Positions 22,278 to 38,501 of a stretch of DNA of 64,000 bases are shown in pieces. The DNA comes from Candidatus Bathyarchaeota archaeon (GTDB lineage: Archaea; Thermoproteota; Bathyarchaeia; TCS64): the NCBI GenBank assembly GCA_026014815.1, contig JAOZHP010000043.1, positions 11,931 to 75,930 on the forward strand, in the 5' to 3' direction. Positions within the stretch are counted from its first letter, which is position 1, and each line of letters starts with the position of its first letter. A program made the position numbers and the translations under genes. A model generated the notes under the pieces. That model saw only the letters and a list, made by a program, of their open reading frames with translations, ran no database searches and was not told the origin of the DNA.

Positions 22278-22499
22278 TTAATCTGTTTTGTAGACCACTT
22301 TTGTCTTGGTTCCAGAAAACTCCACGAAGTGAACGGCTCCGCAGACATGTTTTACCATGATGGTGGTTTTTATGAGACCGTCCTCGAAGCACACGTTATG
22401 AGGCTTCCATTTAGCGGAGGACTCGTCTAGGATACGGAAAACCTCGCCGCATCCACCGCAGGTAACATCCAGTTTCTCTAACGTAGTCTGAACGCGCAT
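22278..22499 (-). CDS. hypothetical zinc-ribbon-like protein
   Basis: 73 aa. A CGGCG motif plus distal Cys/His residues. Confidence 0.3.
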   Translation of the reverse strand: MRVQTTLEKLDVTCGGCGEVFRILDESSAKWKPHNVCFEDGLIKTTIMVKHVCGAVHFVEFSGTKTKVVYKTD

Positions 22500-22633
22500 C
22501 GATATACCACACCCAATAGATTGAAACCAGTCTACATCGGACTGAACTGGTTTAGATAATATAAATAAAAACGATTATGGAATAACTCCAGCAACGTTAC
22601 AGCGGTAAACAAGCAACTATCATATTCAGCCTA

Positions 22634-22720
22634 TGGTAGCCGGGGGGAAACCGGCTCCAAGGCACTATTCTAACTGGTTTCAGCACAAGTTCCATTATTT
22701 TTCAGTAAATCTTGGGAGGC
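22634..22720. repeat. outermost decayed copy of the tRNA-Gln 3' part plus the Rep-upstream block
   Basis: tggtagccgggggg...ggctccaagg matches the tRNA 3' end and anticodon region with an internal deletion. The following ctaactggtttcagc...cttgggagg is collinear with 26920-26985 and 34595-34650. Confidence 0.6.
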
Positions 22721-22789
22721 GTGAACCGGTTAAAACAAATATGGAAATAAATGGAATTAATAAAAGGTAAAAAATGTCGAAAGAATAGA

Positions 22790-23617
22790 TTAGGAGGTTT
22801 CGTGAGGTTCATCTGTATGGCATTGGGCGCAGTCGCTCTTAGCGTGAACGTTTGCGATGGGACCAGCGTCCCCGTGGCAGCCATTACAGGTTGTGACACT
22901 CACTGCGTCCTGGAAGACAGGCACGAAGTTGCCGTCCGTTACGGCGTTCAGCATCTCCGCTGCGCGGCCTGCAACCTCGGCGGTGAGTCTTCCACATCTT
23001 TCTTTCCTCTCGATTGATCCTGAGCCAAATCCTGATGCTTCACACCACTTGGTTACGGACACGTGGCATAGAGGTGAACCAGCTTCGGAGGTGGGTAGAT
23101 CCTCGTCAGTCTTTACTGCTACAGCAGGCTTCCATGTGGGGTATGCTGTTTCAGTGTATTCACCGACTAGCTCATTTACGGGCGAGAGGTCCGATGAAAC
23201 TAGGTTCATCGCCATTATTGCGCCGTTGATGGCTCCACATAGTGTTCCCCAGCCAACAGTTCCTCCTTTACCGTAGACCGCCATCTTTGTGGGGATACTG
23301 GTGTACGGGAATCCTACTTTTTCTTTGAGGCCTCCGATTATCGCCTCGAACGCCCCGTAGGAGCATCCTGACTCAAAGTAGGCGTTATAGGCTCTGTTCT
23401 TAACTTCCTCAACATCCAGTTTCTCGTATGTCCATGGATACTCAGGAACCTCCTGTGGGACCTCTACTTCAACTTCTACCTCGTTTGTGACTATGGTTTC
23501 CTTGGGAGGCATTATCGAGTAGCCTCCAACGGCACCAATCGCTAGTCCTCCAACGGCGGCTCCCGCCATCTTCATGAAGTCTCGTCTTGATACATTGTTC
23601 TCTGTCAATACTATCAC
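22790..23617 (-). CDS. Tat-signal C_GCAxxG_C_C-family protein with a C-terminal dihaem c motif
   Basis: 275 aa. SRRDFMKMAGAAVGGLA twin-arginine signal, GTLCGAINGA core, and two CxxCH motifs (CNGCH, CAQCH) in the last 35 aa. Confidence 0.65.
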   Translation of the reverse strand: MIVLTENNVSRRDFMKMAGAAVGGLAIGAVGGYSIMPPKETIVTNEVEVEVEVPQEVPEYPWTYEKLDVEEVKNRAYNAYFESGCSYGAFEAIIGGLKEKVGFPYTSIPTKMAVYGKGGTVGWGTLCGAINGAIMAMNLVSSDLSPVNELVGEYTETAYPTWKPAVAVKTDEDLPTSEAGSPLCHVSVTKWCEASGFGSGSIERKERCGRLTAEVAGRAAEMLNAVTDGNFVPVFQDAVSVTTCNGCHGDAGPIANVHAKSDCAQCHTDEPHETS

Positions 23618-23772
23618 CTAAGGGATAAAACGCAGTAATACGACCTTAGTATAAATTATTATTCATGTTTTTTTAGGCAAGACTAATGATTTTACTGCAT
23701 TGGAACTTAAAATCATATCCTCACACATCGAGGGGGAAAGAATATATCTGATGAAAAAAATCACATACTACT

Positions 23773-24240
23773 TTGACTCAAATCGATGAGCTAGACAAAA
23801 AGATTCTGGAGATACTCAAGCTGGATGGACGTGCACCGATCAGAGAGATCTCCAGACAGCTAGGTTCAAGTCCGGCAACGGTTTCACGAAAGATCAAACG
23901 AATGGAAGAAGCGAACATCATTAAGGGCTACGTCAGCATCGTGGAAGACGAAGAGGTGGGTAAAGGCTCACGCGCTGTGTTACTTGTGAAGACCACTGGT
24001 GATTATGATCAGAACCAGATTGTTGAAAAAGTCACACAGATGGATGATATCTGTAACGTGTTTCTTACCATGGGGAACTATGACATGATATTAACGGCGT
24101 GCACCAACAGCGAGGCCGAGTTATACAGGATGATAAAAAAGATACGAAGCACATCTGGCATTCTCTACGTGGACTCTACTACGATAGTCTCAAGGCGTAA
24201 AGTACTCAGCAAGATCGTCTCGGATAACAAAGAGCCATAA
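23773..24240 (+). CDS. Lrp/AsnC family transcriptional regulator
   Basis: 155 aa. LDELDKKILEILKLDGRAPIREISRQLGSSPATVSRKIKRMEEANIIKGY HTH plus a RAM domain. Confidence 0.85.
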   Translation: MTQIDELDKKILEILKLDGRAPIREISRQLGSSPATVSRKIKRMEEANIIKGYVSIVEDEEVGKGSRAVLLVKTTGDYDQNQIVEKVTQMDDICNVFLTMGNYDMILTACTNSEAELYRMIKKIRSTSGILYVDSTTIVSRRKVLSKIVSDNKEP

Positions 24241-24456
24241 ATAAACCGAAAAATCACAATTAACCTAAATCCACTTGTCCGGGTGTTTAGTAAATTCCTT
24301 CAACCAAAAATATATTTAATGAGTTGAGTTGGCAGGGAAAACGAAGCACTGACCCATAAAAACTTGAAAATAACATGACAAAGTCAAACCTTAAGCGATT
24401 TTATAACCAAAAAGCAATCATACAAGAAAAAAACAGCACTAATTCAAGCTTAAGTA

Positions 24457-24528
24457 TGGTTGCCCGGGGGAGATTCGAACTCACATCGGAGTGTCCAAAG
24501 CCCACCTTGTAGGCTGAAGGACCAGACT
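24457..24528 (-). pseudogene. decayed near-full-length tRNA-Gln copy
   Basis: The reverse complement AGTCTGGTCCTTCAGCCTACAAGGTGGGCTTTGGACACTCCGATGTGAGTTCGAATCTCCCCCGGGCAACCA aligns with the intact tRNA. It has a 4-nt deletion in the anticodon stem, a T-stem mismatch and a 1-72 mismatch. Confidence 0.6.
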
Positions 24529-24580
24529 TATCGGGGGACCTTTAAATCCGATAATAGTACGGGTGGAGCTTTAATTGGCT

Positions 24581-25072
24581 TCATCTCATATTCCTTTTCA
24601 GGAACTCGTGATACTGTTCAACATCCTTTCGTGGGAATGGGTTTACAACCGTGATCTCTCTGACTTTTTGGAGTTCTTTGTCGAGCGAGAACACGACTGT
24701 CGACCCGAGGCTCCTGGCGAGGGAGATGAGGTATCCATCCCATGACTCTATGCTGTAGGTCGAGGCGTAGTCAAGGGCATCCTGGGCCACCTGCGGCGAT
24801 ACGTGCGGGTAGAGGGCGGGTGATCCCGTTCTCAGGATGCCGCCGAGAATCTTTTTCACCGTCATCCTCGGGACCCGCAGGTATCGGGTGGCGACGTGGT
24901 ACGCTCCGATGATTGCTGTGATGGGTATCGCCGCTTGCTTCTTCTGAGTGAGCACGTCTGCGAGGAAGGCCGTGCTGTGCTCTTTTAGGGGGTTGTCGAA
25001 GCACGTGGGGACCAATATGCCCACGTCGACGACTCCGTCAGTGTAGGCCGAGTTTTCTCCGGGCGTACTCAC
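24581..25072 (-). CDS. vapC: PIN-domain toxin (VapC-like)
   Basis: 163 aa. Acidic PIN residues (VVDVG..., ESWDGY, SLDKEL). Overlaps the upstream antitoxin gene by 35 nt. Confidence 0.75.
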   Translation of the reverse strand: MSTPGENSAYTDGVVDVGILVPTCFDNPLKEHSTAFLADVLTQKKQAAIPITAIIGAYHVATRYLRVPRMTVKKILGGILRTGSPALYPHVSPQVAQDALDYASTYSIESWDGYLISLARSLGSTVVFSLDKELQKVREITVVNPFPRKDVEQYHEFLKRNMR

Positions 25073-25325
25073 TGCTCATCCACTTCCAGCTCTCGTCGGG
25101 CTCTTCGGTGAAGGCCTCGGCCCCGAGGCTCCTGGTGAGGTCCTCCCACTCCCGGACGTTTCTCTTGACGTCGTTGGAGACGGGCTCGATGATGACCCGG
25201 GAGCCGTCCAGCCTTATGGTCACCTCCCCCCCTCCCTTGAGGCCGAGGGCCTCCCGGAAGTGCGCGGGCAGGACCAGCCTTCCCTGTTTATCGATCGTCA
25301 CAGAATTTTCCATGTTTCCTACCAT
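25038..25325 (-). CDS. vapB: AbrB/SpoVT-type antitoxin (VapB-like)
   Basis: 95 aa. TIDKQGRLVLPAHFREALGLKGGGEVTI swapped-hairpin motif. Confidence 0.75.
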   Translation of the reverse strand: MVGNMENSVTIDKQGRLVLPAHFREALGLKGGGEVTIRLDGSRVIIEPVSNDVKRNVREWEDLTRSLGAEAFTEEPDESWKWMSSEYARRKLGLH

Positions 25326-25344
25326 ATGGCATAAGTCATGCCAT
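25326..25344. promoter_or_regulatory. perfect palindrome abutting the vapB start codon (candidate operator)
   Basis: atggcat-aagtc-atgccat. AbrB-type antitoxins autoregulate through such sites. Confidence 0.4.
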
Positions 25345-25392
25345 TGATAAAAGCGTTGAGAATATTAGGCTACCAATATGCAACCGAGATAA

Positions 25393-25446
25393 AAGTAGCT
25401 CCGGAGGAGACTCGGACTCCCGTTGGAGGGCCCAAAGCCCTCCATC
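25393..25446 (-). repeat. decayed copy of the tRNA-Gln 3' half (acceptor 3' strand, T arm, anticodon arm)
   Basis: aagtagctccggaggagactcggactcccgttggagggcccaaagccctccatc is collinear with 38367-38420. The anticodon loop CTTTGGG is retained and there is no 5' half. Confidence 0.6.
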
Positions 25447-25562
25447 TCGAACCCTTAAAGAAACTGATTTGATCAGGTTTTGTTAAGATGAATGAATTAA
25501 GAGATGAGAGAATGTTGAACTCATGGTTTAAGCCAATAGTCTTGATATTTTATATCTGACTC

Positions 25563-26093
25563 TCATTTCACGTTTCCGATTTTTAAGTTTTTTAGGATAT
25601 TCTGTAGCTCCGTTATTCTATCCGAGTTTAAACCATCCAATATTTTTTCTATATCCAGTACAAAGATTTTAGTCCTTTTCATTAATTTCTCTAAATCTAT
25701 ACTTATTTTTCGTGTATAATATTGCATCTCGATTCTGTCTTCTTTCGACTTCTTGAATTCCTGAATAATCTGAGGAGGAACGTCACGACCGAATAAATAT
25801 TCAAAGACCGCTATTGTGCAGTCATGAATCTCACACTTTACCCCGATCTTCAACAGCAATGCATAAACGGCAAAATATTTTGCATAATATCCAGCAGAGA
25901 CTGCCCATTCAATAATGCCTTCTTTTGCGTTGACCTCCATAGACTTCAAGGCGTTTCTTGACTTCTCTAGGTAAGCTCTCACCAAGTTTTCAGAGGGTTT
26001 GACTTGCCTTATGCCCCTATTTTGGTCTAGACACCATTTCAGGTATCTTTTATTGTCTTGCATTGTATCGCCACATGATTTCACAGTAATCAT
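25563..26093 (-). CDS. HEPN-domain protein (toxin of a HEPN-MNT pair)
   Basis: 176 aa. AVSAGYYAKYFAVYALLLKIGVKCEIHDCT matches the PF05168-type HEPN pattern. Overlaps the upstream MNT gene by 44 nt. Confidence 0.65.
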   Translation of the reverse strand: MITVKSCGDTMQDNKRYLKWCLDQNRGIRQVKPSENLVRAYLEKSRNALKSMEVNAKEGIIEWAVSAGYYAKYFAVYALLLKIGVKCEIHDCTIAVFEYLFGRDVPPQIIQEFKKSKEDRIEMQYYTRKISIDLEKLMKRTKIFVLDIEKILDGLNSDRITELQNILKNLKIGNVK

Positions 26094-26685
26094 CGATTCC
26101 CTTGAGGACTATGTGGTTTGAGACAACCTCCATTATTAATGGATCATTATCCATCAATCCGTTCAGAAACTGTTTCATGTTGGTGGACTTGATGTTTACT
26201 TCTCTATCGATCAGACTGCCGGTTTCTCTGATGCCGTCTGCATCGGGTTTTCTGTTGGATATAATGAAAAGGTCGATATCGCTTTCCTCGGTCATCTCTC
26301 CTTTGGCGAAGCTGCCGAATAGTACGGTCGTGCCCTCTAATTTATCTCCTGTTTCACTCATGAGCTTCTTTATCAGAAAATTCTTTTCAAGAAAACGTAT
26401 AGAGGCGAAGGTCTCTGCAAGAATCATATAATACTTTGCAACTAGATTGTCGAGTTTCAGGCGATATTCTTTATTCCTTCCCTTGACGATGCTGGAAAGA
26501 ACGTTGATATCTTCAAGCCTCCTCAACTGTAGCCCAACGGCTTTCACATCGACACCGACGTCCCTCGCAATCTCCCTCACGTGCAGAGACCTGCGGTAGT
26601 CGCCCAAGAAAAGTCCCAGAATCTTGAGCGTGGTCTTGTTAATGCTGTATTTTTCCATCATATGTAGTAACAATACAACAAGCAT
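26050..26685 (-). CDS. wHTH-minimal nucleotidyltransferase (MNT) protein
   Basis: 211 aa. N-terminal wHTH (SLHVREIARDVGVDVKAVGLQLRRLE) and the NTase motif LFGSFAKGEMTEESDIDLFI. Confidence 0.7.
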   Translation of the reverse strand: MLVVLLLHMMEKYSINKTTLKILGLFLGDYRRSLHVREIARDVGVDVKAVGLQLRRLEDINVLSSIVKGRNKEYRLKLDNLVAKYYMILAETFASIRFLEKNFLIKKLMSETGDKLEGTTVLFGSFAKGEMTEESDIDLFIISNRKPDADGIRETGSLIDREVNIKSTNMKQFLNGLMDNDPLIMEVVSNHIVLKGIDDYCEIMWRYNARQ

Positions 26686-26802
26686 TTAAAGGCACCTTAA
26701 AACACCGAGGAAAATAGAATAAGACCTCTTCATTCTCTCATATCAAAAAAAATCTTAGCTTTGAGTTAACATAAAAAGGAAGAGGGACGGAACCCATAAT
26801 CC

Positions 26803-26861
26803 GATGCATGCATTAGTCCGTTCATCACTTATTTGATGCATTTAAAAGAAAGAAGATGCAT
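26803..26861. repeat. three GATGCAT repeats (iteron-like)
   Basis: gatgcat at 26803, 26835 and 26855, just left of the att-like core and the Rep gene. Confidence 0.35.
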
Positions 26862-26894
26862 TGAAATTTTTCCCAAGCGTTTTCTATTACGTTT

Positions 26895-26993
26895 TGGTAG
26901 ACCGGGAGATACTGGGGCCCAGGTACTAACATAGTCTGGTTTCAGCTCTCAATTTCCTTCTTATTCAGCAATTCTAGGGGGTACTGTTCGCCC
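26895..26993. repeat. att-like core (tggtagaccgg) plus the conserved Rep-upstream block, copy 1
   Basis: Collinear with 34570-34657 and 22634-22720. Shared ggtactaa..ctggtttcagctctcaatttcc. Confidence 0.65.
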
Positions 26994-27943
26994 ATGTTAT
27001 GTCAAATCAAATTCAAAAGCCTTAGATTGGGTCATTATCGGGCTTTGCTTAGCTACGAAAACCCAGACCGAGAGAAGATAATTGATGCTTTCACATATTG
27101 GCCTAATTTCGTTGAGTACTTGGTATTCAGGAAAGAGAACATCTACACTTATGAGAAAGAATACAAGATGGCTAAGACCGCGAAACGTGGGAATGATGTT
27201 TATTCTGCTAAAGTGAGAAAACGGTTAAACTATCTCTATAATCTTCCTCAGATTGAATTCTTCAATTATAAAGATAGAAACAGGGTTCAGAAAACGAGGG
27301 CTGTATTTGTTACTCTGACTTATCGACGTGATGATCCTCTAGATATTCTCTGGAAAGAGGTTGGTAGGGATTTTAATCGGTGGATTAGCGGGTTACGGTG
27401 TAGATACAAGAAGATAGATGTTCTACGTTGTTGGGAAGCCCAGAGTGATGGTTACCCACATATTCACTGTGTCTTGCTTTTCCATGAAGTTAAGTTTGAT
27501 ACATTTTTTCATAATAATAATGGAGGGTTAAGGAAAAGGAGGCTTTAACAAAGAATTGGTGTTAGGGTTTCAGTGATGTATTTGCTTTGTACAGCCTTGG
27601 TGCTGGTGTAGGTTATGTAATGAAGTATGTTACGAAGGTTAATACTGCTTTACTTCAAGAAAACAAGAATCGTAAACTAGTTCTTTCTTTGGCTTTGAGG
27701 TGGATTTTCAAGAAACGTGCATTCTCAGTATCTAAGGCGTTTGGGTTATTTCTCGTTGAAGAGATAGATGATGGCCCACGTGGTCAGGTGGATCTCGAAG
27801 GAAAAACGATTTATCGTTGGGTTCTTGTCGGATTCTAGTCAGGAAATCTCGGAACATGGAATAGGGATTTGTCATTCAGAGAATATTGGATTATCTATTC
27901 ATCTGAATATTTTACCTTCAACAAAGTTTTGTTTTCTGATTAA
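26994..27943 (+). pseudogene. rep: HUH-superfamily rolling-circle Rep without a helicase domain, disrupted (one frameshift, two in-frame TAGs)
   Basis: Motif I VFVTLTY, motif II PHIHCVLLF (27459-27467 encodes HIH) and motif III GYVMKYVTK. Frame change in the aat-repeat near 27519. TAG at 27563 and 27836. The frame continues to TAA at 27941-27943. Confidence 0.75.
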
Positions 27944-28015
27944 ATTGTGTGTAGTCCAAGAATCATTTCATCAATTATCTATTTTGTTCGATAGTTTTTT
28001 TTAATAGTTAATAGA

Positions 28016-30010
28016 ATGAAAGATGGTGATATAATGCTCCTAGAGTCAGTTTGTGTTGATGGGTTTAGAACAATTTCTGAAAAATGTTCATTAAATGTCG
28101 ATCCAAAAATTACTGTTCTAATGGGTGCAAATGAGAGTGGAAAAACGAACTTATTACATGCAATAAAATATTTCAATTTTAATGAAAATATTCAGTTAAG
28201 TGATATTACAAAAACGGATACGACAAGATGGAGAAAAAAGATTTATCCAATAATTGAACTGATGTTTAGTTTAGATAAAAATGATATTGAAAAAGTGAAT
28301 GACATCATACCAAAACATATCGAAAGTAACAAAATTATTATTCAAAAAAAATTTAATGGAACAATAAATAAATATACAATAAAAATATCCGCTAAATTAA
28401 AAAGAGTAATATATAATAGTAAAATTGAGGAACTTAAAAGTGAAATAAAAAGTGAACAGATAAAATTAAAAAAGATGAATCGTTCAGTTAATACGTTGAA
28501 TGTAAACTTAATAAAACATAATTCAGAACTAGAAACAAAACCTAATCCTAGTGATTTACAAAAAATTCGTAGAAGAATTAGAAGAACTGAAAGAAACATA
28601 AAACAAAGAAATAATGAAAAAACAGAATTAATAATTGAACTAACAAGTAAGATGGACGTGATTAAAGATATAGAAAATGACATAGCAAATTTAAAAGATG
28701 AAATAATAAATATTGGGGATGAACAAATAAAACAATTATTTAATTTATTGCCAGAAATAATTTATATTGATAGAATTGAATATATTACTGATCAAATTCC
28801 AATACCTGAAATAATAAATCGAAATTCATATCGTGCGATAGCAATTGGAAATCTATTAAAAATTGGTGGAGTAAATGATTATGATACGTTAAATGAAAAT
28901 ATGAATAGGGTGAGAATTAATTTAGAACGAGCATCAGAATTAATAACAGAGAAATTTCTGAAAGTATGGAAGCAAGAACCAATAGAAATTTCATTATATA
29001 AAGAAGGAAACAACATAAACATAGAATTCAAAGAAAATATATCTATCGCGTCTCCTCCTGAAGAAAGAAGCCAAGGTTTTCAATGGTTTATATCGTTTTT
29101 TACAAACTACATAATTAATAATGAAGATATGAAGAAAAAAATAATTTTATTAGATGAACCAGCGCTTCAATTGCATCCTAGAGGTCAAAAAGATTTTGTA
29201 CAAATTCTTGAGGATATAGCAAACAATAATCAAATAATATATACAAGTCATTCTCCATTTTTGATTAATAGAAATTATCCTGATAGGATAAGATTAATAC
29301 ATAAAAAAGAAAATATCGGAACAACAATTATGAATAAACCCTATACGGATGGTAAGAGAAGATGTTGGGAACCATTAAAGTCTGCTATTGGGATTTGTTT
29401 AGGGGATTTATTTTCATTTGGAGAAACAAACATAATTGTAGAAGGATATTCTGATAAAATATTGATGTCTTTTGTATCAAATCAATTCGCAAAATTAGGC
29501 TTAGAACATATCGATTTAAACACTCACACAATATATCCAGCTGATGGTGCAGGTAATACACCATATATGGTCAAATTTGCGTTCGATTCAGGATTGAATC
29601 CATTAGCAGTAATTGATGCTGATGAAAATGGGATAAAGGCCAAGACGGTTATTGAAGAAAATCTTCCAGATTTTAATAAAATTATAATGTTATCCGAAAT
29701 TCTAAGTACAGCAAAAACTATTGAGGATTTATTACCTGTGGAAAAATATGTTGAATCTGTGAATAGTTATTATAGCAATGTTAGTATGGGAAAATATGAA
29801 AAAATTGATTATAAATTATTAGAAAAAATACCATGGAAAGAAATAGGTATAGTAAAACCAATAAAAGATCATTTGAAAAAATATGAGCATAAATTAAATA
29901 AAAATATGGTTATAAAAGAATATTTTAAATTATTCACAATAACAAATGAAAGCATTGAAGAATATGAGCCATTTAAACATCTTATTAGAAAAATAATTAC
30001 ACTTCTATAA
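28016..30010 (+). CDS. OLD-family ATPase-TOPRIM nuclease with a coiled-coil insertion
   Basis: 664 aa. Walker A GANESGKT, ERSQGFQW, Walker B KKIILLDEPALQLHP, IIYTSHSPF. TOPRIM motifs NIIVEGYSDK and AVIDADENG. A Lys/Glu/Asn-rich coiled coil of about 130 aa lies between Walker A and the signature motif. Confidence 0.75.
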   Translation: MKDGDIMLLESVCVDGFRTISEKCSLNVDPKITVLMGANESGKTNLLHAIKYFNFNENIQLSDITKTDTTRWRKKIYPIIELMFSLDKNDIEKVNDIIPKHIESNKIIIQKKFNGTINKYTIKISAKLKRVIYNSKIEELKSEIKSEQIKLKKMNRSVNTLNVNLIKHNSELETKPNPSDLQKIRRRIRRTERNIKQRNNEKTELIIELTSKMDVIKDIENDIANLKDEIINIGDEQIKQLFNLLPEIIYIDRIEYITDQIPIPEIINRNSYRAIAIGNLLKIGGVNDYDTLNENMNRVRINLERASELITEKFLKVWKQEPIEISLYKEGNNINIEFKENISIASPPEERSQGFQWFISFFTNYIINNEDMKKKIILLDEPALQLHPRGQKDFVQILEDIANNNQIIYTSHSPFLINRNYPDRIRLIHKKENIGTTIMNKPYTDGKRRCWEPLKSAIGICLGDLFSFGETNIIVEGYSDKILMSFVSNQFAKLGLEHIDLNTHTIYPADGAGNTPYMVKFAFDSGLNPLAVIDADENGIKAKTVIEENLPDFNKIIMLSEILSTAKTIEDLLPVEKYVESVNSYYSNVSMGKYEKIDYKLLEKIPWKEIGIVKPIKDHLKKYEHKLNKNMVIKEYFKLFTITNESIEEYEPFKHLIRKIITLL

Positions 30011-30046
30011 TATGGTATAAATGAACAATAATGCAATTTATGCAAA

Positions 30047-30082
30047 TGGCGGGGAAGGCGCGTAGCGGTGACCCGCCGCGAC
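30047..30082. other. isolated GC-rich hairpin-forming patch in AT-rich DNA
   Basis: tggcggggaaggcgcgtagcggtgacccgccgcgac. GGCGGG (30048-53) pairs with CCCGCC (30072-77). Confidence 0.4.
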
Positions 30083-30167
30083 TTGATATAGATGACTAAC
30101 TCAAACCAAGTTGAAGACGTGAATGGGGTTTTAACAAAATTATAATACTTAACGAGAAATAGGATTC

Positions 30168-30974
30168 TTGAAACCGATGGACAAAAGAAAATCCTTGATT
30201 GATAAAATAAAATCTGATTTAGAAGAATCTGGATATCCATTAGAAATCGAAGTTATGAAGGAATTATTGAAAAATAAATGGCTGGTGACTCCTCAGTACC
30301 ATTATAAAGATCCTATTGAGGGAAAGGAAAGAAGTGTAGATTTTCTATGTTTAAAAGGTGGTAATATTCAAGCAAAGGAATATGAGCGTTTTTACGTTAA
30401 TTTAATTATCGAATGTAAAAAACTCGAAGATAAGCAATGGGTTTTGTTTACTATGAATGACGCAATTGGACGAGAAAACCCTGAAGCCTATATCCAATTT
30501 GTGGCGAACTCAAGAGATTGGATGATGAATTTTGAAACCAGTCTCCAAATTGATAATCTTCATTACAATAAAGAAATCCCTGTTGCTCTGAATCACTATA
30601 TTCCCTTTAATAAGAAAGACTCTCTCTATGAGGCACTGAATCAATCGATAAATGGACTCTATAGTAAGAAAAAACAAGTGAATAAGGAGCTTCAAGAGCA
30701 CGATTTTCCTGTATGGAATGGTTACAATATGTTTGTTCCAATAATAGTCGCTGATTCCAATCTGTATCAATATAACATCGCATCAGATGAGATTTCAGAA
30801 GTCGATTTTTTATATTATCGAACTACTGGAATGGGTGAAATTGAAGACAGTTCTATTGTAGAGATAATGCGGAAAGACAAGTTGAACGATTATTTATCCA
30901 AACTAAATGAAACCATTGATCAAATATTGAAATTTATTGAGACCTATGAACCAAAAGATCCTAATACGGTTTAG
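30168..30974 (+). CDS. PD-(D/E)xK-like nuclease-fold protein with an uncharacterised C-terminal domain
   Basis: 268 aa. E26/E28 helix, D58 in RSVDFLC, and E82-x-K84 in NLIIECKK. The remaining roughly 170 aa carry no recognised motif. Confidence 0.5.
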   Translation: MKPMDKRKSLIDKIKSDLEESGYPLEIEVMKELLKNKWLVTPQYHYKDPIEGKERSVDFLCLKGGNIQAKEYERFYVNLIIECKKLEDKQWVLFTMNDAIGRENPEAYIQFVANSRDWMMNFETSLQIDNLHYNKEIPVALNHYIPFNKKDSLYEALNQSINGLYSKKKQVNKELQEHDFPVWNGYNMFVPIIVADSNLYQYNIASDEISEVDFLYYRTTGMGEIEDSSIVEIMRKDKLNDYLSKLNETIDQILKFIETYEPKDPNTV

Positions 30975-31049
30975 GTTTTTCATTCAAAGGTGTCATTCTT
31001 GCACTAGAATAAGACCAGAAAGATATTCTAAACCGTGAGGCAGTGGTAA

Positions 31050-31199
31050 AACCATCCCGTCCAATTATTGACCTTTCAAAGAGATGAATCTGACTTCAGA
31101 ATTTTATCAAAAACTATCCGAAAAACGTCGATAGATGAACTGAAAAGTAGCAGATATTTACGTCTGGAGAATGGTAGCCCGGAACCTATTCGAGTCTAG
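31050..31199 (+). pseudogene. remnant homologous to the C-terminus of ORF 38051..38401, ending in an att-like core
   Basis: Translation NHPVQLLTFQRDESDFRILSKTIRKTSIDELKSSRYLRLENGSPEPIRV aligns with PHRTIIGPSARQEQDYVILQKTIKKTLLEELRNSTYLSCDSGSPGEIRTPV (about 21/48 identical). Confidence 0.55.
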
Positions 31200-31214
31200 A
31201 TGCGTCAGAATACT
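31172..31214. repeat. att-like core tggtagcccgg plus 24-bp direct repeat copy A
   Basis: Core at 31172-31182. cgagtctagatgcgtcagaatact at 31191-31214 recurs at 32647-32670. Confidence 0.6.
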
Positions 31215-31260
31215 TCTTATTACATTAATTTTATTATAATCTATAAATAGGGATTGTGGA

Positions 31261-32655
31261 TTGATTCTTATGAAAAATCGTAGTTTGCTTTTTTTTCTTA
31301 TCTTTATTTCGCTTTTACCCAATGTTCCTGTATCTTCAACATCAATCACATTTAATCAAGTTGATAGTCCTTGGGATGTTAGTTTTCCTTGGGAGCCACT
31401 ATCTTTTAGTGTTGAAATTGTAGATGGTGAAAAAGAAGTATCTAATATAACATTATTATATACAACTGAACCTAAGGAGAATCTCAATTTTATTCACGTC
31501 CCAATGAACCTTGTAAAAGGAAATTCCTACTCAGGGCTTTGGAATTATTCATTAGACGGATTTGGGGCAAACACCAGTCTATATTATGCTTATCAAATAA
31601 ATTATACAAAGGGTTATTCTCAAAGTCCTGTCCCAGACCTTGAAAATGCATATCTAAGGAAAATATATTACCCTAAGAATACAATAATAAATGTAAATTC
31701 TTTTAGAATCATAGAGATTAATCCTATAAAATTAACTGCTGATATTGAAATAAATGTCCATATAATCACTGGATCAATTTTAGAAGAAATCAGCATACAA
31801 ATAGGAAATCGAGTAAGAGACGGATACTTATCATCACTTGAATACGTGAATATACCAGTCATTCAAGGATGGCGATATAATTATATTGATACAATCAAAG
31901 TAAATGATTTAAAATTAACTGGAAATGCTTTTGAATATCCCTTTGATGATTATTACTTAGATATTTTTCTAAGATCATATTATTATGATGCCTCTAAATT
32001 CATGATACCTGAATCTTCTGTGAATATTTATGAACCCAGTAATCATGTATGGTCTATGGAACCAACCAAATTAACTATCAAGGATAATGAGGTTAATGGT
32101 TATTTTCAAATAAGTAGGCTAGGTCAAAATTCTCGTTTTGTTTTATTCCCTCTTTTAATTTGTAGCTTCTTATTGGGGTCAAGTCTATTAATCGATAATA
32201 AATATGACCTGAGAATACGCATGAGTCTGTATATCTCATCGATTTTCTTTATGTTAAAAACTTCTAATGATATTAGAAATTATGTGCCAACAAGAACTTT
32301 AGGAATAAGTTTCGCTGAAAATGCATATTTATTTGTCTCAATTTTTTTCGGCATTTATATAATTTCTACTATACTCGGATATTATCTTTATAATATAAAA
32401 CAAAACGAAGCTTTTCCACGACAATTTGACTTAATATCAGTAATTTTGTCAACATTAATATTCATTTTTTATCCAATCCTAAATCTATATTCAACAAACT
32501 ACACTCTTTATAACATGATTCCCACTTTCTGGATGAGGATCTTATTCATTTTTTCAATATCTTGGGGATTAATGATCCAAAGATTAAAGGAAAATGTATC
32601 AAGTTTTCAAACAAAAATAACCGATTATATTATTCATGAATCCAATCGAGACTAG
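31261..32655 (+). CDS. secreted/membrane protein: N-terminal signal, extracytoplasmic domain of about 290 aa, C-terminal multi-TM region
   Basis: 464 aa. LLFFLIFISLLPNVPVSS signal-like N-terminus and at least 5 hydrophobic helices after aa 300. Confidence 0.55.
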   Translation: MILMKNRSLLFFLIFISLLPNVPVSSTSITFNQVDSPWDVSFPWEPLSFSVEIVDGEKEVSNITLLYTTEPKENLNFIHVPMNLVKGNSYSGLWNYSLDGFGANTSLYYAYQINYTKGYSQSPVPDLENAYLRKIYYPKNTIINVNSFRIIEINPIKLTADIEINVHIITGSILEEISIQIGNRVRDGYLSSLEYVNIPVIQGWRYNYIDTIKVNDLKLTGNAFEYPFDDYYLDIFLRSYYYDASKFMIPESSVNIYEPSNHVWSMEPTKLTIKDNEVNGYFQISRLGQNSRFVLFPLLICSFLLGSSLLIDNKYDLRIRMSLYISSIFFMLKTSNDIRNYVPTRTLGISFAENAYLFVSIFFGIYIISTILGYYLYNIKQNEAFPRQFDLISVILSTLIFIFYPILNLYSTNYTLYNMIPTFWMRILFIFSISWGLMIQRLKENVSSFQTKITDYIIHESNRD

Positions 32656-32670
32656 ATGCGTTAGAATACT
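32647..32670. repeat. 24-bp direct repeat copy B
   Basis: cgagactagatgcgttagaatact (22/24 match to 31191-31214). Overlaps the stop codon of ORF 31261..32655. Confidence 0.55.
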
Positions 32671-32712
32671 ATGAATAAAAATGTTTAATATATTGATTTA
32701 TTGATTTTTTTC

Positions 32713-33318
32713 TCATGGTTTTTGGTTGTCTTTATAATTTTCCTTGAATAGCTTATTAAATTCGTCAAGTTGATTATTTGATTGTTGGTTACTCCATAAG
32801 ATCATTGGAAGTATGAGTATGGTTAATTGAATTGCTAGAGTAACCCCAAGCATGTTATCTGGTAATTTATTTAATTCAAAAAGGGCTGTAGCCATAGAGC
32901 CGATGACTAGATAACCGAGTCCTAATATGGCTACCGTCACATCATTTTTTTCTATTCCCCTTTGAAATGTTTTTGATAGATCAGATGCCCAGCTTTCCGA
33001 TACAGGTTCTTTATTTTCTAATAATCGATTGATCTCGAATCGAATTATTTGGCTTTCATAGTAATAGCTCATTCTCCAAAAATGACCTGCAACAACTGAC
33101 ATTGCTAGATAGGAACCAATGCCTAGGAGAGCTGGGAAATAATTGTAAGAAAGCTCTTTTTCTAAGATCAATCCTGCAGCAGTAAATAAGAAAGCAAAAG
33201 CTGCTTTGCCATAAGTCATGTCTCTATTGATTCCACGGTTTTGATTTAATGTGATTTCGTAAAGAGAGATTAGAGTGTCTTTAACGTCCTTAGTATCCAT
33301 AATGATATTGAGATACAA
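32713..33318 (-). CDS. 4-TM membrane protein (two helical hairpins separated by an amphipathic segment)
   Basis: 201 aa. TM hairpin AAFAFLFTAAGLIL / FPALLGIGSYLAMSVVAGHFW, then VTVAILGLGYLVIGSMATALF / LGVTLAIQLTILILPMILW. Confidence 0.55.
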   Translation of the reverse strand: MYLNIIMDTKDVKDTLISLYEITLNQNRGINRDMTYGKAAFAFLFTAAGLILEKELSYNYFPALLGIGSYLAMSVVAGHFWRMSYYYESQIIRFEINRLLENKEPVSESWASDLSKTFQRGIEKNDVTVAILGLGYLVIGSMATALFELNKLPDNMLGVTLAIQLTILILPMILWSNQQSNNQLDEFNKLFKENYKDNQKP

Positions 33319-33368
33319 AATTATAAATAAATTTAGTTAATTATTCAGTATATAATTGCATATAGTAA

Positions 33369-33379
33369 ATGGTAGCCCG
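33369..33379. repeat. att-like core tggtagcccgg
   Basis: aatggtagcccggaa is identical over 15 nt to the copy at 31170. Lies between the TIR and 4-TM genes. Confidence 0.55.
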
Positions 33380-33414
33380 GAAGAGATCGAATACTTCGTT
33401 TAATTTTACCGGTT

Positions 33415-34242
33415 TTATGAGAATGTTTTATTGATCTCTTCAGCGATGAGATCGAAATCAAGTGGTGTAGATACGGGTAGTCCTTGAATGTACTCAAGTA
33501 TTCCTGGGATTTTTTTCATCATCAATATGGGATAGATTGGCACATTTTTCGCTATGGCGTATCCACATTCTTGGTGAGGCCAAGCTCGCATTCTGAAATT
33601 CTTTGTTACCCATGCTACTAAACCAATGCATTCATCAAGTCTCTGGATGATCTCGTCCTTCCATTCCTCGCCTATATCGATTGTATCGTGGGCTCTAAAT
33701 ACTCTGTAATTATATTTTTCCTCTAGAATGTCACATAATTTGCCTACATCTTTTTTATCTTTATTAGCATAACTCATGAATATTAAATTACTATTTTGTG
33801 GTGATTTCTTTAGTGATAAATAATCAGTATAAACATCTAAATTTTGTTCATTGAAACTATAATCTTTACCGCTCAATAGGTTTTCTATATCTTTAATATA
33901 ATTCTCTACGTCACTTAGGGGACCATGTTGTTTTAATTCTTCTTCTAGAAGTAACTTATGGACTTTTAAGCTGCCCCCTATTATCTCTAACACTGTATCT
34001 AATTCTCTTTTTCTTATTCTATGAAAACTCCATTTTTCTGTTTGAAAATATGTTGACTCAACATAATTTAATCCGTTTATTAATTCACGCCTCTTTTTTT
34101 CGAGTGCCTGTTGCACTATGCCTGTTGTGATGCTCTGTTTTAACTCGAAATATTCGTTAATTTTATTCTTGGTTTCTTTGATGGCGTTATGCATGATTGT
34201 GCGATTGGGTTCCCTGAAATTCAGATTCCAATAGTTAGACAT
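33415..34242 (-). CDS. TIR-domain protein with an N-terminal helical domain
   Basis: 275 aa. C-terminal LIFMSYANKDKKDVGKLCDILEE...FRAHDTIDIGEEWKDEI...VAWVTKNFRMRAWPHQECGYA matches the bacterial TIR pattern (F-x-S-Y start, W-x-x-x-E catalytic Glu region). Confidence 0.65.
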   Translation of the reverse strand: MSNYWNLNFREPNRTIMHNAIKETKNKINEYFELKQSITTGIVQQALEKKRRELINGLNYVESTYFQTEKWSFHRIRKRELDTVLEIIGGSLKVHKLLLEEELKQHGPLSDVENYIKDIENLLSGKDYSFNEQNLDVYTDYLSLKKSPQNSNLIFMSYANKDKKDVGKLCDILEEKYNYRVFRAHDTIDIGEEWKDEIIQRLDECIGLVAWVTKNFRMRAWPHQECGYAIAKNVPIYPILMMKKIPGILEYIQGLPVSTPLDFDLIAEEINKTFS

Positions 34243-34569
34243 CTCAATTTCCTTGATGTTTTATGTTCTATTTAAAATTAATATTTATGATAAAGGGAAA
34301 CTTACATCTGCATTTTCGGCAAAGGCTACTATACTTTAGAGATCACAACACTGGAAGCTGAATGGGTGATAGTTGGAATAAGCCAACTAGTGCCTAAATA
34401 AAACCCACAAACAGAATGGAATCAGACATAAAATTCGTCTTTGTGTCGAGTTGCAAATGCTCCGAGGATCATCGCCGCGAATATTAAGAGCCAACCCAAA
34501 AAACTATCGTACAGGAAGCCGCCGGCTAGAGCCATAATTACGGAGAGTACTCCTAGGGGCCGTTGAGAA

Positions 34570-34657
34570 TGGTAGCCCGGGTGATATTGGGGTCTAGGTA
34601 CTAATCTAGCTGGTTTCAGCTCTCAATTTCCTTTCTTCTACAGCAATTCTAGGAGGT
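34570..34657. repeat. att-like core plus the conserved Rep-upstream block, copy 2
   Basis: tggtagcccgggtgatattggggtctaggtactaatctagctggtttcagctctcaatttcc is collinear with 26895-26993. Confidence 0.65.
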
Positions 34658-35003
34658 ATGTTTGCCCATGTTATGTCAAATCATGTTCCCAAGCCTAGAT
34701 TTGGATACTATGGAGCATTTCTAAGCTATGAAATGCCAGACCTAGATGCAATAATAGAGGCTTTCATTTACTGGTCTAACTTCATAGAATACTTGGTATT
34801 CAGAAAAGAAAATATCCACACCTATGAAAAAACATACAAAGTGGAAGGCCGCCAAACGTGGGAATGATGTTAATATTTGGAAACTGAAAAATCGATTACG
34901 TCACCTGAATAAACCGCCCCAGATCGAGTTCTTCAATTTTAAAGATCGCAGTAAAATTCAAAGGACTAGGGCGGTGTTTATGACATTGACTTTTTTTCAA
35001 TAA
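34658..35003 (+). pseudogene. rep: 5' remnant of a second HUH Rep copy (frameshifted, truncated just after motif I)
   Basis: YWSNFIEYLVFRKENIHTYEKTYK, then after a 2-nt deletion KAAKRGNDV...PQIEFFNFKDRSKIQRTRAVFMTLTFFQ and a stop. Homologous to 26994-27325. Confidence 0.65.
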
Positions 35004-35032
35004 AGCATTATTTTCTGACTAAGTTTGTGGAT

Positions 35033-35839
35033 TTAGGGTACTAGTGTTAAGGTTATTACGGTTTTATCCCAATAAGGTTCTCCGATTTCAACATTCATTA
35101 TTTTATCGGATTGTGGTTCAACGAAGATCAGACCTGAATCTGTTGTTTCGAAGGCAATAATTGCGTGACCTGGACCGCCTGGGAATTCCATGGTTACAAA
35201 GAAACATCGGTACCCGTTTTCGAAAGCGTTTTGTTTCACAATTGCTGCAAAATCATCACAATCAAAATACATTTCTTCGTATTGTAGTTGGTCGGTTTTG
35301 TCTTTTCTAAGGAATTCTTTCATTTCGGCGTAAGTGGGGTCTCGTATTTGCCACCCAGTTGTTGAGAATCCTTCGGTAAAGCCAGTGTCATATCCAGAAT
35401 CGTAACCAGAATCATAGCCAGTTTCTTCTCCTATATGGTATCCTTCAATGTAACCTGATTCGGTTCCGACATCATATCCAATAACGTATCCTGTTTGGTT
35501 TCCAAAAGTCCAGCCAACGTCCCAGCCGTAGTTTTTTCCATCAGAGTATCCTGCTTCATAACCTTCTATTTTTCCTGTGTCTGTTCCTTCTAACAGCCCT
35601 TTCTCATATCCAAGAGAGTATCCCAGATCGATACCTACTTGTTTACCAGTATATTGACCTGCTAAAAAACCAATAATTGAAAAAACGATTATAGCAATGA
35701 TTGTAACTTTGTATGATTTGGTTGGTTTATCGTCGTTGTTTTTAATTTCACGATATGATTTTTTATATTTATTATTTTTAAAGAAATTTGTAATTGAATT
35801 GATATTATTTGCTTCTTTTTGAGGGAGATTGATCTCCAT
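35033..35839 (-). CDS. membrane-anchored transglutaminase-like cysteine protease with a GY-repeat linker
   Basis: 268 aa. TM VTIIAIIVFSIIGFLAG, roughly 95 aa of (G/E/D)xGY repeats, and C-terminal FDCDDFAA...GPGHAIIAF...VEPQSD (Cys-His-Asp pattern). Confidence 0.55.
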   Translation of the reverse strand: MEINLPQKEANNINSITNFFKNNKYKKSYREIKNNDDKPTKSYKVTIIAIIVFSIIGFLAGQYTGKQVGIDLGYSLGYEKGLLEGTDTGKIEGYEAGYSDGKNYGWDVGWTFGNQTGYVIGYDVGTESGYIEGYHIGEETGYDSGYDSGYDTGFTEGFSTTGWQIRDPTYAEMKEFLRKDKTDQLQYEEMYFDCDDFAAIVKQNAFENGYRCFFVTMEFPGGPGHAIIAFETTDSGLIFVEPQSDKIMNVEIGEPYWDKTVITLTLVP

Positions 35840-35958
35840 TTTCGTTCATTCTCATCAAGAGTGTTTAATGTTATAGCTTTTTGAGAGCGGGGGTATGTAT
35901 CTGAACTCCATAATGTGTATAATTAATTGAAACTTTATTGACTTGTCAGTGAATCAAT

Positions 35959-36807
35959 TTGATGATGAGAGATGCGAAAGTTGGTAGTATTATCGCAACG
36001 TTGTTTGGTGGCTGTTTTTTAATAGCTATTTGTTTTGTCGTTATTTTTTATCCTCCTCAATTTTTCGGTATGGATCTTTTCACGCCTTCAAGTGGAAACA
36101 ATATTGCATCCGATCAAACGATTGAACCTGAACCTGTGGTAGAATCTTCTATTGAAGAAAGTGTTGAAGAAGAAAACGCAATCGATATTGAAGAAATTGA
36201 TTTTGTAAGTATAGAAGAGGCAATTACTGATTTAGAAAAATCAGGGTGTGTTATTACAGAAGTTGATGATTTATCGGGTTATCCTGATAGTAGGATTTTT
36301 TTAGAGTATGATGAGTTCAAAAAAATTGCTGTTAAGGAGGAAATTGTATTTTTATTAACAGTTGAAGAGCATAGTGTTTTGTTTATCCCATATGAAAATT
36401 CGCATATTACTTGGTTCCCAGATGAACCAGCTGACGAGGAATCCGATAAAACTCCAGCTGAAAGATTGGTGATTCAGACTGGATATGGTACTTATGATAG
36501 TGAATCCACATCATGGCTTATCACATTAAAAGTAAAAAACGAGGGAAATTCGGATGTAGTAATCAAATCAGCATTTCTAAATGACATCCCCTGTGAAATT
36601 TTAAAATATGGTATAGATTCTGTTCCTATTGATAATTGGGGTACAAGTTTTCCCAGTACGGGAATTCCACTGGAAAGTGGGAAAACAGTTAATGTTTATT
36701 ATTATATCGATGTTGGGTATGCATCATTTACATCAGGCACAACAATAAATACAAAATTGACAAGTGAAAGGGGAACAGTAATTATCAAGTTAATACGTTT
36801 ACCCTAA
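35959..36807 (+). CDS. membrane-anchored protein with an acidic linker and a beta-rich C-terminal domain
   Basis: 282 aa. TM IIATLFGGCFLIAICFVVIFY, a Glu-rich linker, and a C-terminal ...WLITLKVKNEGNSDVVIKSAFLND... Ig-like strand pattern. Confidence 0.5.
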   Translation: MMMRDAKVGSIIATLFGGCFLIAICFVVIFYPPQFFGMDLFTPSSGNNIASDQTIEPEPVVESSIEESVEEENAIDIEEIDFVSIEEAITDLEKSGCVITEVDDLSGYPDSRIFLEYDEFKKIAVKEEIVFLLTVEEHSVLFIPYENSHITWFPDEPADEESDKTPAERLVIQTGYGTYDSESTSWLITLKVKNEGNSDVVIKSAFLNDIPCEILKYGIDSVPIDNWGTSFPSTGIPLESGKTVNVYYYIDVGYASFTSGTTINTKLTSERGTVIIKLIRLP

Positions 36808-36878
36808 ATCTATTTTTGTGTTTTTATGAGGTTGGTAGGGTAGATACTTAGTACGAGAAGATTCTAATGCATAATTAT

Positions 36879-37046
36879 CAAGTGGATCTTGAAGGTGAAT
36901 CGATATACAAGTGGTATCTTATCGGGTTCAGGTCTGACCTGAACGGAACATATGAATCATGGAGTGTGGATTTGTCTTATAAGGAATTTTGGTGTATTCG
37001 TTCATCCGAATATTTTACATTCAACAAATCAATTTTTTCGGATTAG
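36879..37046 (+). pseudogene. rep: 3' remnant of the second Rep copy
   Basis: QVDLEGESIYKWYLIGFRSDLNGTYESWSVDLSYKEFWCIRSSEYFTFNKSIFSD aligns with 27785-27943 of copy 1. Confidence 0.6.
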
Positions 37047-37128
37047 TATAACATATGAAATTCAACTAATGTGAGATGTACAAAAAAGTACCAATAAATT
37101 CTTTTACTAACTCACTGATTTTAACATT

Positions 37129-37707: not shown

Positions 37708-37717
37708 TGATTTCATT

Positions 37718-38032
37718 ATGAATTTCAATTTTCTGAATGCGATATTGCTAGGAATTCCGGTAACAGCGATAGTACTTTGGATTGTAGTCCAATATTTTCC
37801 AGGATATAGTAAAATTAGTATAACTAATTCATTTTATGTTGCTTCAGTATCCTTTTTATCAAACCTTTTTTTAGATCTTTTCAATATCGCGTTATCCCAA
37901 ATTTTCACCATTTTTATTATGGGTTATATGTTGAAACAAAATTCGAGATTGGATTGGGTTAGAGCATTGTTTATTTCCGTTATTGTGTTTTTTATTTCGT
38001 CTTTTTTCATTGTGATATCAGCGTTTATTTGA
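37718..38032 (+). CDS. small 3-TM membrane protein
   Basis: The ATG at 37718 lies in frame within track ORF 37679..38032. Hydrophobic throughout. Confidence 0.45.
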   Translation: MNFNFLNAILLGIPVTAIVLWIVVQYFPGYSKISITNSFYVASVSFLSNLFLDLFNIALSQIFTIFIMGYMLKQNSRLDWVRALFISVIVFFISSFFIVISAFI

Positions 38033-38050
38033 TGGTCATACATTGCGTGC

Positions 38051-38401
38051 ATGGTGAGACACGTTACAGACACATTCAACGATATGCAAAGCGTAGGAAT
38101 AGAATACATACGGGAAATCTATCGAAACTCAGGTCTAAGCATACGACCACAAACCAAGATAAACAAAATAGAACCCCTGAAAGGCGTGATAATGGCACTA
38201 GGATTAGACCCAAACGAGGTACTAAGCCGTGAAGCAATGGTCAAACCACACCGGACAATCATTGGCCCAAGCGCAAGACAAGAACAAGATTACGTGATAT
38301 TACAAAAAACCATCAAAAAAACCCTATTAGAAGAGCTCAGAAATAGCACATATCTGAGCTGTGACAGTGGTAGCCCGGGGGAGATTCGAACTCCCGTCTG
38401 A
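38051..38401 (+). CDS. hypothetical element-end protein whose 3' end overlaps tRNA-Gln antisense
   Basis: 116 aa. The last 35 nt overlap the tRNA 3' end. A diverged copy of its C-terminal 49 aa recurs at 31050-31199, in front of another att-like core. Confidence 0.45.
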   Translation: MVRHVTDTFNDMQSVGIEYIREIYRNSGLSIRPQTKINKIEPLKGVIMALGLDPNEVLSREAMVKPHRTIIGPSARQEQDYVILQKTIKKTLLEELRNSTYLSCDSGSPGEIRTPV

Positions 38402-38442
38402 GGCTCCAAAGGCCCCCATCCTTGTCCGCTAGACGACCGGGC
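38367..38442 (-). tRNA. tRNA-Gln (anticodon UUG), CCA encoded
   Basis: Reverse complement AGCCCGGTCGTCTAGCGGACAAGGATGGGGGCCTTTGGAGCCTCAGACGGGAGTTCGAATCTCCCCCGGGCTACCA. 76 nt, folded by hand: 7-bp acceptor with archaeal-Gln A1-U72, anticodon loop CTTTGGA, T loop TTCGAAT. Confidence 0.9.
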
Positions 38443-38501
38443 TATGCGCACCCAAAAAACGCGTCACGAAGTTATAAATCTATCAAACCTAACCAACAAA
38501 C

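Follow-up and report, generated by a model that had tools for sequence, protein, structure and literature searches.

The stretch of DNA analysed here (the window) comprises 64,000 nucleotides (nt) of contig JAOZHP010000043.1, from assembly GCA_026014815.1 of a Candidatus Bathyarchaeota archaeon, and holds two adjacent genes on the forward strand of an integrated, Rep-bearing element at a tRNA-Gln gene. The first, at 28016..30010, encodes an OLD-family protein of 664 amino acids (aa) in which an ATPase is followed by a TOPRIM nuclease domain; the second, ORF2 at 30168..30974, encodes a small protein with a PD-(D/E)xK-like core. The original prediction, made from the DNA sequence, had read the two as a candidate two-gene defence module. 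We favour a different reading, to which we give a probability of about 0.7: OLD and ORF2 are independent, separately acquired single-gene nuclease cargoes that occupy the variable slot of a decayed Rep-type element at tRNA-Gln. This reading is built on the domain identities of the two proteins, the conservation of their motifs, the absence of co-occurrence between their relatives and the separate blocks of homology that they share with other loci.

Judged by its sequence, the OLD gene is full-length and specifies an ABC ATPase interrupted by a coiled coil and then a TOPRIM domain, with the catalytic motifs all intact. The open reading frame (ORF) is present as originally described, and each motif quoted for it was recovered in the 664-aa translation: GANESGKT (residues 37-44), ERSQGFQW (350-357), KKIILLDEPALQLHP, IIYTSHSPF, NIIVEGYSDK and AVIDADENG. 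The OLD architecture was borne out by Pfam, with matches to AAA_15 (2.8e-22), AAA_21 (2.5e-14) and OLD-like_TOPRIM (2.5e-5; 25.2 bits, above the curated cut-off of 23.2; residues 468-536), by PADLOC models (AriA, 7e-25; Old, 2.4e-23; GajA, 4.7e-18; also AbiLi and PtuA) and by the best sequence match in PDB, the Class 1 OLD of Thermus scotoductus (TsOLD, 6p74); the TOPRIM domain alone was uninformative against PDB. The PADLOC and hidden Markov model (HMM) searches proposed with the original prediction gave a divided result: OLD matched the Old, AriA and GajA models, but ORF2 matched no PADLOC model.

When the window protein was aligned with 21 relatives of 34-48% identity (22 sequences), G37-T44, E350-R351-S352, D380, H412, E476-G477, D534, D536, E570-D571 and K629 were invariant, and from this conservation of its motif residues the gene looks functional. 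On the DNA, these residues correspond to Walker A (28124-28147), the ERS signature (29063-29071), Walker B with D380/E381 (29153-29158) and the H-loop with H412 (29249-29251), all on the forward strand. The TOPRIM nuclease domain with the conserved C-terminal residues, delimited by Pfam and by the invariance, extends over 29417..29902 on the same strand and contains E476 (29441), D534/D536 (29615-29623), E570-D571 (29723-29728) and K629 (29900). The true start of the protein is probably M7, at the ATG at 28034, because the homologues and the Pfam match both begin there.

Class 2-5 OLD proteins carry a helical insertion in the TOPRIM domain, which Class 1 proteins do not have; in the window protein, the spacing from E476 to D534 is 58 aa, against 54 in TsOLD, and the Pfam TOPRIM match is contiguous. 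A Lys/Glu/Asn-rich insert does interrupt the ATPase domain (28358..28750, forward strand; approximately residues 115-245), and the coiled-coil character originally ascribed to these ~130 aa was upheld by SMC coiled-coil models, which match residues 134-233. This part of the protein is a variable region in the family alignment. It is probably the counterpart of the insert through which OLD proteins dimerise, as described for TsOLD and GajA (PMC10568477). The relatives of the gene are patchily distributed in variable contexts, and none was found in a search among viral contigs.

ORF2 is likewise real and intact. It lies on the forward strand and encodes 265 aa if read from the ATG at 30177, the start used in public gene calls, and 268 aa if the TTG at 30168 is taken; we number it from the ATG, so that the residues originally named as E26/E28, D58 and E82-C-K84 become E23/E25, D55 and E79-C80-K81. 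The PD-(D/E)xK nuclease core (30231..30455, forward strand; residues 19-93) places E23 in a PLE motif on helix 1, D55 on strand 2 and E79-C80-K81 on strand 3. Across 114 diverse sequences of the ORF2 family, D55, E79, C80 and K81 are invariant, and G19, P21, L22, E23, W88, H129, A153 and D193-G194 are conserved in at least 90% of the members. An AlphaFold model on the 114-sequence alignment was confident (predicted local distance difference test, pLDDT, 88; predicted template modelling score, pTM, 0.88) and superseded an earlier, mediocre model from 11 sequences (pLDDT 77). In the newer model, E23 lies on the helix formed by residues 22-32, D55 on the strand 51-63 and E79-x-K81 on the strand 71-81; this is how a classical PD-(D/E)xK site is arranged.

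Foldseek searches of PDB and BFVD with this model returned local matches of ~60-70 residues with a root-mean-square deviation (rmsd) of 1.4-3 and uniformly weak E-values, at least 0.003. Among these weak top matches were the restriction-like endonuclease domain of the R2 retrotransposon (62 residues, rmsd 1.4), AF1548, Exo5, Cas4, MGME1, NotI, lambda exonuclease, UL24, DUF2726, Vsr and viral restriction endonucleases, so that PD-(D/E)xK nucleases predominate at the top of the lists. Together with the invariant motif residues and the predicted fold, which is of the restriction-endonuclease type (alpha-beta-beta-beta-alpha-beta), these matches bear out the original assignment and support a PD-(D/E)xK core in ORF2 by both the motif and the fold that define the superfamily. 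The core is followed by a helix/sheet domain (30474..30971, forward strand; residues 100-265) in which H129, A153 and D193-G194 are nearly invariant. The original prediction could not place this C-terminal part, and we likewise found no recognisable relative for its 165 residues; Foldseek gave no structural match for it in PDB or BFVD. ORF2 shares the E...D...ExK constellation on an alpha-beta-beta-beta core with Mrr-like and other type IV enzymes, AF1548 and the R2 domain, and, like stand-alone PD-(D/E)xK restriction-type nucleases, it occurs without an adjacent methyltransferase. Unlike those nucleases, it carries its core N-terminally, ahead of a 165-aa domain without recognisable relative, and has an invariant Cys in the ECK motif.

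By its sequence, ORF2 belongs to a large unannotated family that corresponds to no described PD-(D/E)xK family. The window protein matched nothing in Pfam, PADLOC, NCBIfam or PHROGs, and no relative appeared among PDB sequence profiles. A word-indexed search recovered 13 close relatives only, against 4,296 representative clusters at E<=1e-3 (2,128 at E<=1e-10) in an exhaustive profile search; these clusters are representatives at 50% identity and come from bacteria and archaea. Nearly all of the best-scoring 150 clusters are full-length (234-328 aa), and every named member, among them Desor_0954 of Desulfosporosinus orientis and a protein of a Nanoarchaeia genome, is called a "hypothetical protein". 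When 45 diverse members were compared with Pfam there were no matches, and with PADLOC there were four scattered weak ones, none better than 3e-4.

Whether the two genes belong together can be read from their relatives. Neighbourhoods of ORF2 relatives from 80% down to ~20% identity were collected as 13 independent contexts (loci L001-L015, L018 and L063-L070), and OLD relatives as 46 loci (L016, L017 and L019-L062); in 26 of these, the sequence extends for at least 900 nt beyond the OLD gene. An OLD gene stood in none of the 13 ORF2 contexts; an HMM of the OLD clade found nothing in 17 ORF2 loci, and, reciprocally, an HMM of the ORF2 family found nothing in the 46 OLD loci. Conserved co-localisation, the defining feature of the proposed OLD plus PD-(D/E)xK system, was therefore not found, and the two-gene module as originally conceived is not supported. 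Neither gene has another steady companion. Of the two OLD relatives nearest in sequence, at 48% and 44% identity, one has a convergent BamHI/BglII-like gene behind it and the other a gene for a thiamine-pyrophosphate enzyme; the neighbours at eight close-clade OLD loci are mutually unrelated, and an all-against-all blastp comparison of the neighbours in the 13 ORF2 contexts revealed no recurrent partner.

The nucleotide homology of the two genes also falls into separate blocks. In blastn comparisons, the segment 30064-30986, that is, ORF2 with ~105 nt on its 5' side and 12 nt on its 3' side, is 75.5% identical to the loci L009-L011, in which the upstream gene is a divergent HNH endonuclease gene and not OLD; the homology of OLD to other loci is confined within the OLD gene. 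Consequently, the spacer between the genes (30011..30167, forward strand) is, from ~30040-30064 onward, part of an ORF2 unit made up of ORF2 and ~105-130 nt upstream of it. Within this AT-rich spacer, a GC-rich inverted repeat that could form a hairpin (GGCGGG ... CCCGCC, 30048-30077, forward strand) has been conserved in front of the ORF2 homologue of L009 and therefore belongs to the ORF2 unit. A TATA-like box, AAAATTATAATAC, lies on the same strand at 30136-30148, ~28 nt before the ATG at 30177, and is also conserved in L009. Since both elements are conserved in the shared upstream block, ORF2 appears to carry, and to bring with it, its own promoter. We do not claim a structured RNA in the 157-nt spacer, which folded no better than shuffled sequences (z = -1.0). 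The genes differ in base composition as well: the G+C content (GC) at third codon positions is 0.16 in OLD, 0.31 in ORF2, 0.36-0.38 in Rep and 0.58-0.70 in host genes, which points to separate origins.

Several observations weigh against the reading of OLD and ORF2 as independent cargoes. The two genes are adjacent on the same strand, ~157-158 nt apart; no terminator-like site was found between them, and read-through co-transcription is possible. The closest relatives of ORF2 (P0002 and P0003, 87-89% identity) are on short contigs that reveal no neighbours, and the nearest OLD relative is just 48% identical, so that a pairing restricted to this lineage is conceivable. All structural matches of ORF2 are weak, and about half of the contexts of its family are without recognisable defence genes. 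The first of these points are also the ones that would favour a single two-gene defence system, in which ORF2 acts as effector or partner nuclease as GajB does for GajA and PtuB for PtuA; OLD and ORF2 do fill the cargo slot of one element together, and multi-gene OLD systems are known (PMC10568477). Such a system is nevertheless contradicted at the family level by the absence of co-occurrence in both directions, and it fits poorly with an ORF2 that moves with its own conserved promoter region, with the unequal third-position GC of the two genes and with an OLD clade that has no conserved neighbour. We therefore consider it improbable.

Class 1 OLD proteins are encoded by single genes in variable neighbourhoods (PMC10568477; PMC12796447). 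The OLD gene of the window behaves like a stand-alone, Class 1-type OLD, an assignment that uses the neighbourhood criterion and the nearest solved relative: it has no conserved partner and variable surroundings, and the partners that mark Classes 2-5 are missing. As in P2 Old, TsOLD (6P74) and Vc OLD, one polypeptide combines an ABC ATPase at the N-terminus, into which a helical or dimerisation region is inserted, with TOPRIM at the C-terminus, and the protein also shares with Class 1 the retained catalytic residues, the stand-alone arrangement, the variable neighbours and the carriage on a mobile element. It differs from these references in that its sequence is distant, the match to TsOLD being mainly limited to the Walker B/H-loop region, in its coiled-coil-like insert of ~130 aa and in its apparently archaeal host. 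Vc OLD, which suffices for defence alone and has as its neighbour, within a defence element, a DarTG system that is independent of it (PMC12392090), offers a close analogue of OLD beside ORF2. A number of OLD clades, U1-U10, have been left unclassified, next to the clade U11/Class 5 (PMC12796447).

The multi-gene OLD systems were considered in turn. Gabija (Class 2) comes close in architecture, as GajA is an ATPase-TOPRIM protein of the same kind and its models match the window protein (see above), but no UvrD/PcrA-like helicase gene was found downstream, within the element or adjoining close OLD relatives, and we reject it; unlike the GajB helicase, ORF2 is a 265-aa PD-(D/E)xK protein without a helicase domain. 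A retron-associated (Class 3) OLD was rejected as well, since none of the neighbouring ORFs has a reverse transcriptase domain; an Rfam scan of 22400-38600 returned nothing except the tRNA. The ATPase part also matches the AriA, PtuA and AbiLi models of PARIS (AriA/AriB), Septu (PtuA/PtuB) and AbiL, which are systems of two genes, one for an ATPase and one for a nuclease. In PARIS and Septu, however, the nuclease (the TOPRIM protein AriB or the HNH protein PtuB) is a separate protein, whereas here TOPRIM is fused to the ATPase; PARIS (Class 4) was rejected because both parts lie in one 664-aa ORF.

A last comparison concerns Class 5. Cran1, an archaeal Class 5 OLD, has a role outside defence, in the cell cycle and in chromatin functions (PMC12796447), and because the host of the window OLD is apparently archaeal too, a cellular role of this kind might be considered for it. 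Cran1-class genes, however, are vertically inherited, occur in Sulfolobales only and stand in an operon with a membrane-protein gene (PMC12796447). Here there is no such partner, as the gene downstream encodes a soluble PD-(D/E)xK protein, OLD is carried by an integrated element of low GC (0.26; host, 0.50), and its relatives are patchy and their contexts variable. We have accordingly rejected a Class 5 assignment, and a cellular, non-defence role for the window OLD seems very improbable.

Class 1 OLD enzymes nick or degrade DNA irrespective of its sequence, under the control of their ATPase, and abortive infection is the means by which P2 Old and Vc OLD protect. For the genes of the window we infer enzymatic activities, a defence role and a trigger. 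On the model of P2 Old, TsOLD and Vc OLD, the OLD protein would be an ATPase-controlled homo-oligomer held together by its coiled-coil insert; it would sense an invading virus or plasmid, whereupon its two-metal TOPRIM site would nick or degrade DNA, with abortive infection as the probable outcome. ORF2 would be transcribed from its own promoter and is predicted to be a Mg-dependent PD-(D/E)xK DNA endonuclease with the active-site residues E23/D55/E79/K81, whose family-specific C-terminal domain probably sets target or ligand specificity. Because no methyltransferase gene adjoins ORF2 or its relatives in any context examined, ORF2 is most likely a stand-alone restriction-like nuclease, and its role may depend on DNA modification, as in type IV enzymes. 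The anti-virus or anti-plasmid role originally proposed for the pair is thus plausible as a defence-type role, given the context, but not as the role of one module.

The contexts of the ORF2 family bear on this role, since its members are often found among defence genes or in mobile elements. A clean defence-island context is that of Desulfosporosinus orientis (CP003108.1; L064, 4079-10984), where Desor_0954 stands between a Hachiman pair (HamA and a helicase) and a GmrSD-type gene; for the family member P0300 from Desulfosporosinus, no relative was found in phage or plasmid collections. Other relatives stand with an integrase, ParE and an Eco57I-type (type IIG) restriction-modification gene, with an N4/N6 methyltransferase, HEPN and TIR, or with HEPN_Swt1, and on a viral contig with a GHKL ATPase and an Eco57I-type methylase; a locus search with one ORF2 alignment gave one genome locus and one viral locus. 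In plasmid-borne relatives, the shared part is the N-terminal domain only (residues 8-92).

An HNH endonuclease gene adjoins proteins with an ORF2-type nuclease domain twice (L009, 2865-3326, and L072, 6162-6869), in loci that are unrelated to each other, one on an archaeal-type metagenome contig (L009) and one on Leptospira weilii plasmids (L072). This adjacency may be a coincidence or a loose association.

We tentatively suggest that the ORF2 family may be a new single-gene defence system against viruses or plasmids, consisting of stand-alone nucleases with a PD-(D/E)xK core and a novel C-terminal domain, possibly of a modification-dependent or sensor-nuclease type. If this is true, a function as defence nuclease would explain why ORF2 and its relatives recur, in defence islands and on mobile elements, beside Hachiman, GmrSD, HEPN-TIR and restriction-modification genes and beside OLD. 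In a weaker variant of this suggestion, ORF2 would cooperate with OLD in this one element. It is also conceivable that ORF2 has no part in defence and, as a selfish gene akin to those of homing endonucleases or as a nuclease for DNA repair or recombination, spreads in the form of a one-gene cassette, which would leave OLD as the sole defence cargo. Relatives of ORF2 do occur as single-gene insertions among housekeeping genes (EMG1, S10/EF-Tu, HypD), the unit of homology is the gene with its promoter, the best local structural matches include the R2 retrotransposon endonuclease domain, and an HNH gene adjoins it on two occasions. Nevertheless, there are no flanking repeats and no intein or intron context, several contexts are classical defence islands, and the family is large and has kept its full length and an intact active site, so that we regard a non-defence ORF2 as rather unlikely.

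The element that carries the two genes had been placed at 26895-31171, and these limits are supported by repeats of ATGGTAGCCCGG and by the presence of another, related element at 34570-38367. ATGGTAGCCCGG, a 12-mer, corresponds to the 3' end of tRNA-Gln(TTG). Aligned with the other copies, it forms the right att-like repeat at 31171..31182 (forward strand), and a degenerate copy, TGGTAGACCGG, forms the left one at 26896..26907 (forward strand). Further copies lie at 33369, at 34569 and, with one mismatch, at 38367; the whole window holds six matches with at most one mismatch, against 0.21 expected by chance.

At the left end of the element, an HUH-type Rep gene (26994..27838, forward strand), recognised by Pfam, by its reading frames and by motifs read from the translation, is split over two frames. 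Its first part (26994-27548) contains the motifs FVTLTY and HIHCVL (HUH) and matches REP_ORF2-G2P in Pfam (8.3e-9), and its second part (27587-27838), in a different frame, contains the tyrosine motif YVMKYVTK. Owing to this split, Rep is probably a pseudogene, and the element probably decayed. No relatives of Rep were found in plasmid, phage or IMG/VR viral collections.

The second Rep-type element is related to the first by its left end, by a Rep fragment and by an 88-nt block. Its N-terminal Rep fragment (34658-34867) has 75% nucleotide identity to 27023-27171, and the block at 36958-37045 matches 27855-27942. In both elements this block, a possible origin or promoter, immediately precedes the cargo, and the cargo of the second element differs, being a bPH-SHOCT protein (37129-37707) and a small membrane protein. 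As the same block precedes different cargoes, OLD and ORF2 fill a variable cargo slot of this type of element. The original prediction had taken the two genes as the only cargo of the element, and both do lie in its cargo part; the element, however, is not isolated but one module of a larger tRNA-Gln island.

This island is anchored at tRNA-Gln(TTG) (38368..38443, reverse strand), identified by ARAGORN and by the Rfam tRNA model (55.5 bits). In the locus 24457-38443, integrated modules follow one another in tandem, with copies of the tRNA 3' end between them, and no integrase was recognised anywhere in the island. The segment 26897-38367 has a GC of 33%, against ~50% in the flanks, and tRNA-Gln-like 3' fragments of ~50 nt, including the anticodon arm, lie at 24457-24506 and 25394-25443. 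Most of the cargo of the island resembles toxin-antitoxin or defence genes. On the reverse strand, between the two long tRNA-Gln-like fragments, a gene for a MazE/AbrB-type antitoxin (95 aa) overlaps a 163-aa ORF (24581-25325) with a weak PIN match (4.1e-4; 21.4 bits, below the Pfam cut-off of 23.6), a possible VapBC-like pair, whose GC of 0.56 is host-like and unlike that of the remaining island. Immediately to the left of the Rep element, overlapping genes on the reverse strand (25563-26685) encode a 176-aa HEPN protein and a 211-aa nucleotidyltransferase that has a winged-helix domain, an HEPN-MNT toxin-antitoxin-like pair.

Two further modules lie to the right of the Rep element. Between att-like repeats, 31261-33318 forms a low-GC module of its own with two predicted multi-pass membrane proteins, of 464 aa (forward strand) and 201 aa (reverse strand), for which no family match was found. 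A second small module between att-like repeats consists of the gene for a 275-aa TIR protein (33415-34242, reverse strand) that ends in a TIR_2 domain (6.8e-12) and weakly matches Thoeris ThsB and TIR-type anti-phage models.

Together, these results remove a false lead, as OLD and a small PD-(D/E)xK protein do not constitute a new paired system, and the finding is best described as two nuclease cargo genes, ordinary in kind and acquired independently, on a tRNA-Gln island. The island itself illustrates how toxin-antitoxin and defence cargo can be built up through serial integrations. To our knowledge, archaeal OLD proteins are almost unstudied, and Cran1, the only characterised one, does not act in defence; a stand-alone OLD nuclease carried as cargo of an integrated element in an apparently archaeal genome is therefore of interest. 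The most interesting residue of the analysis is the ORF2 family, which Pfam, NCBIfam, PADLOC and PHROGs all miss. Because its active site is intact and its members repeatedly have defence-island neighbours, the family is a reasonable candidate for single-gene defence screens.

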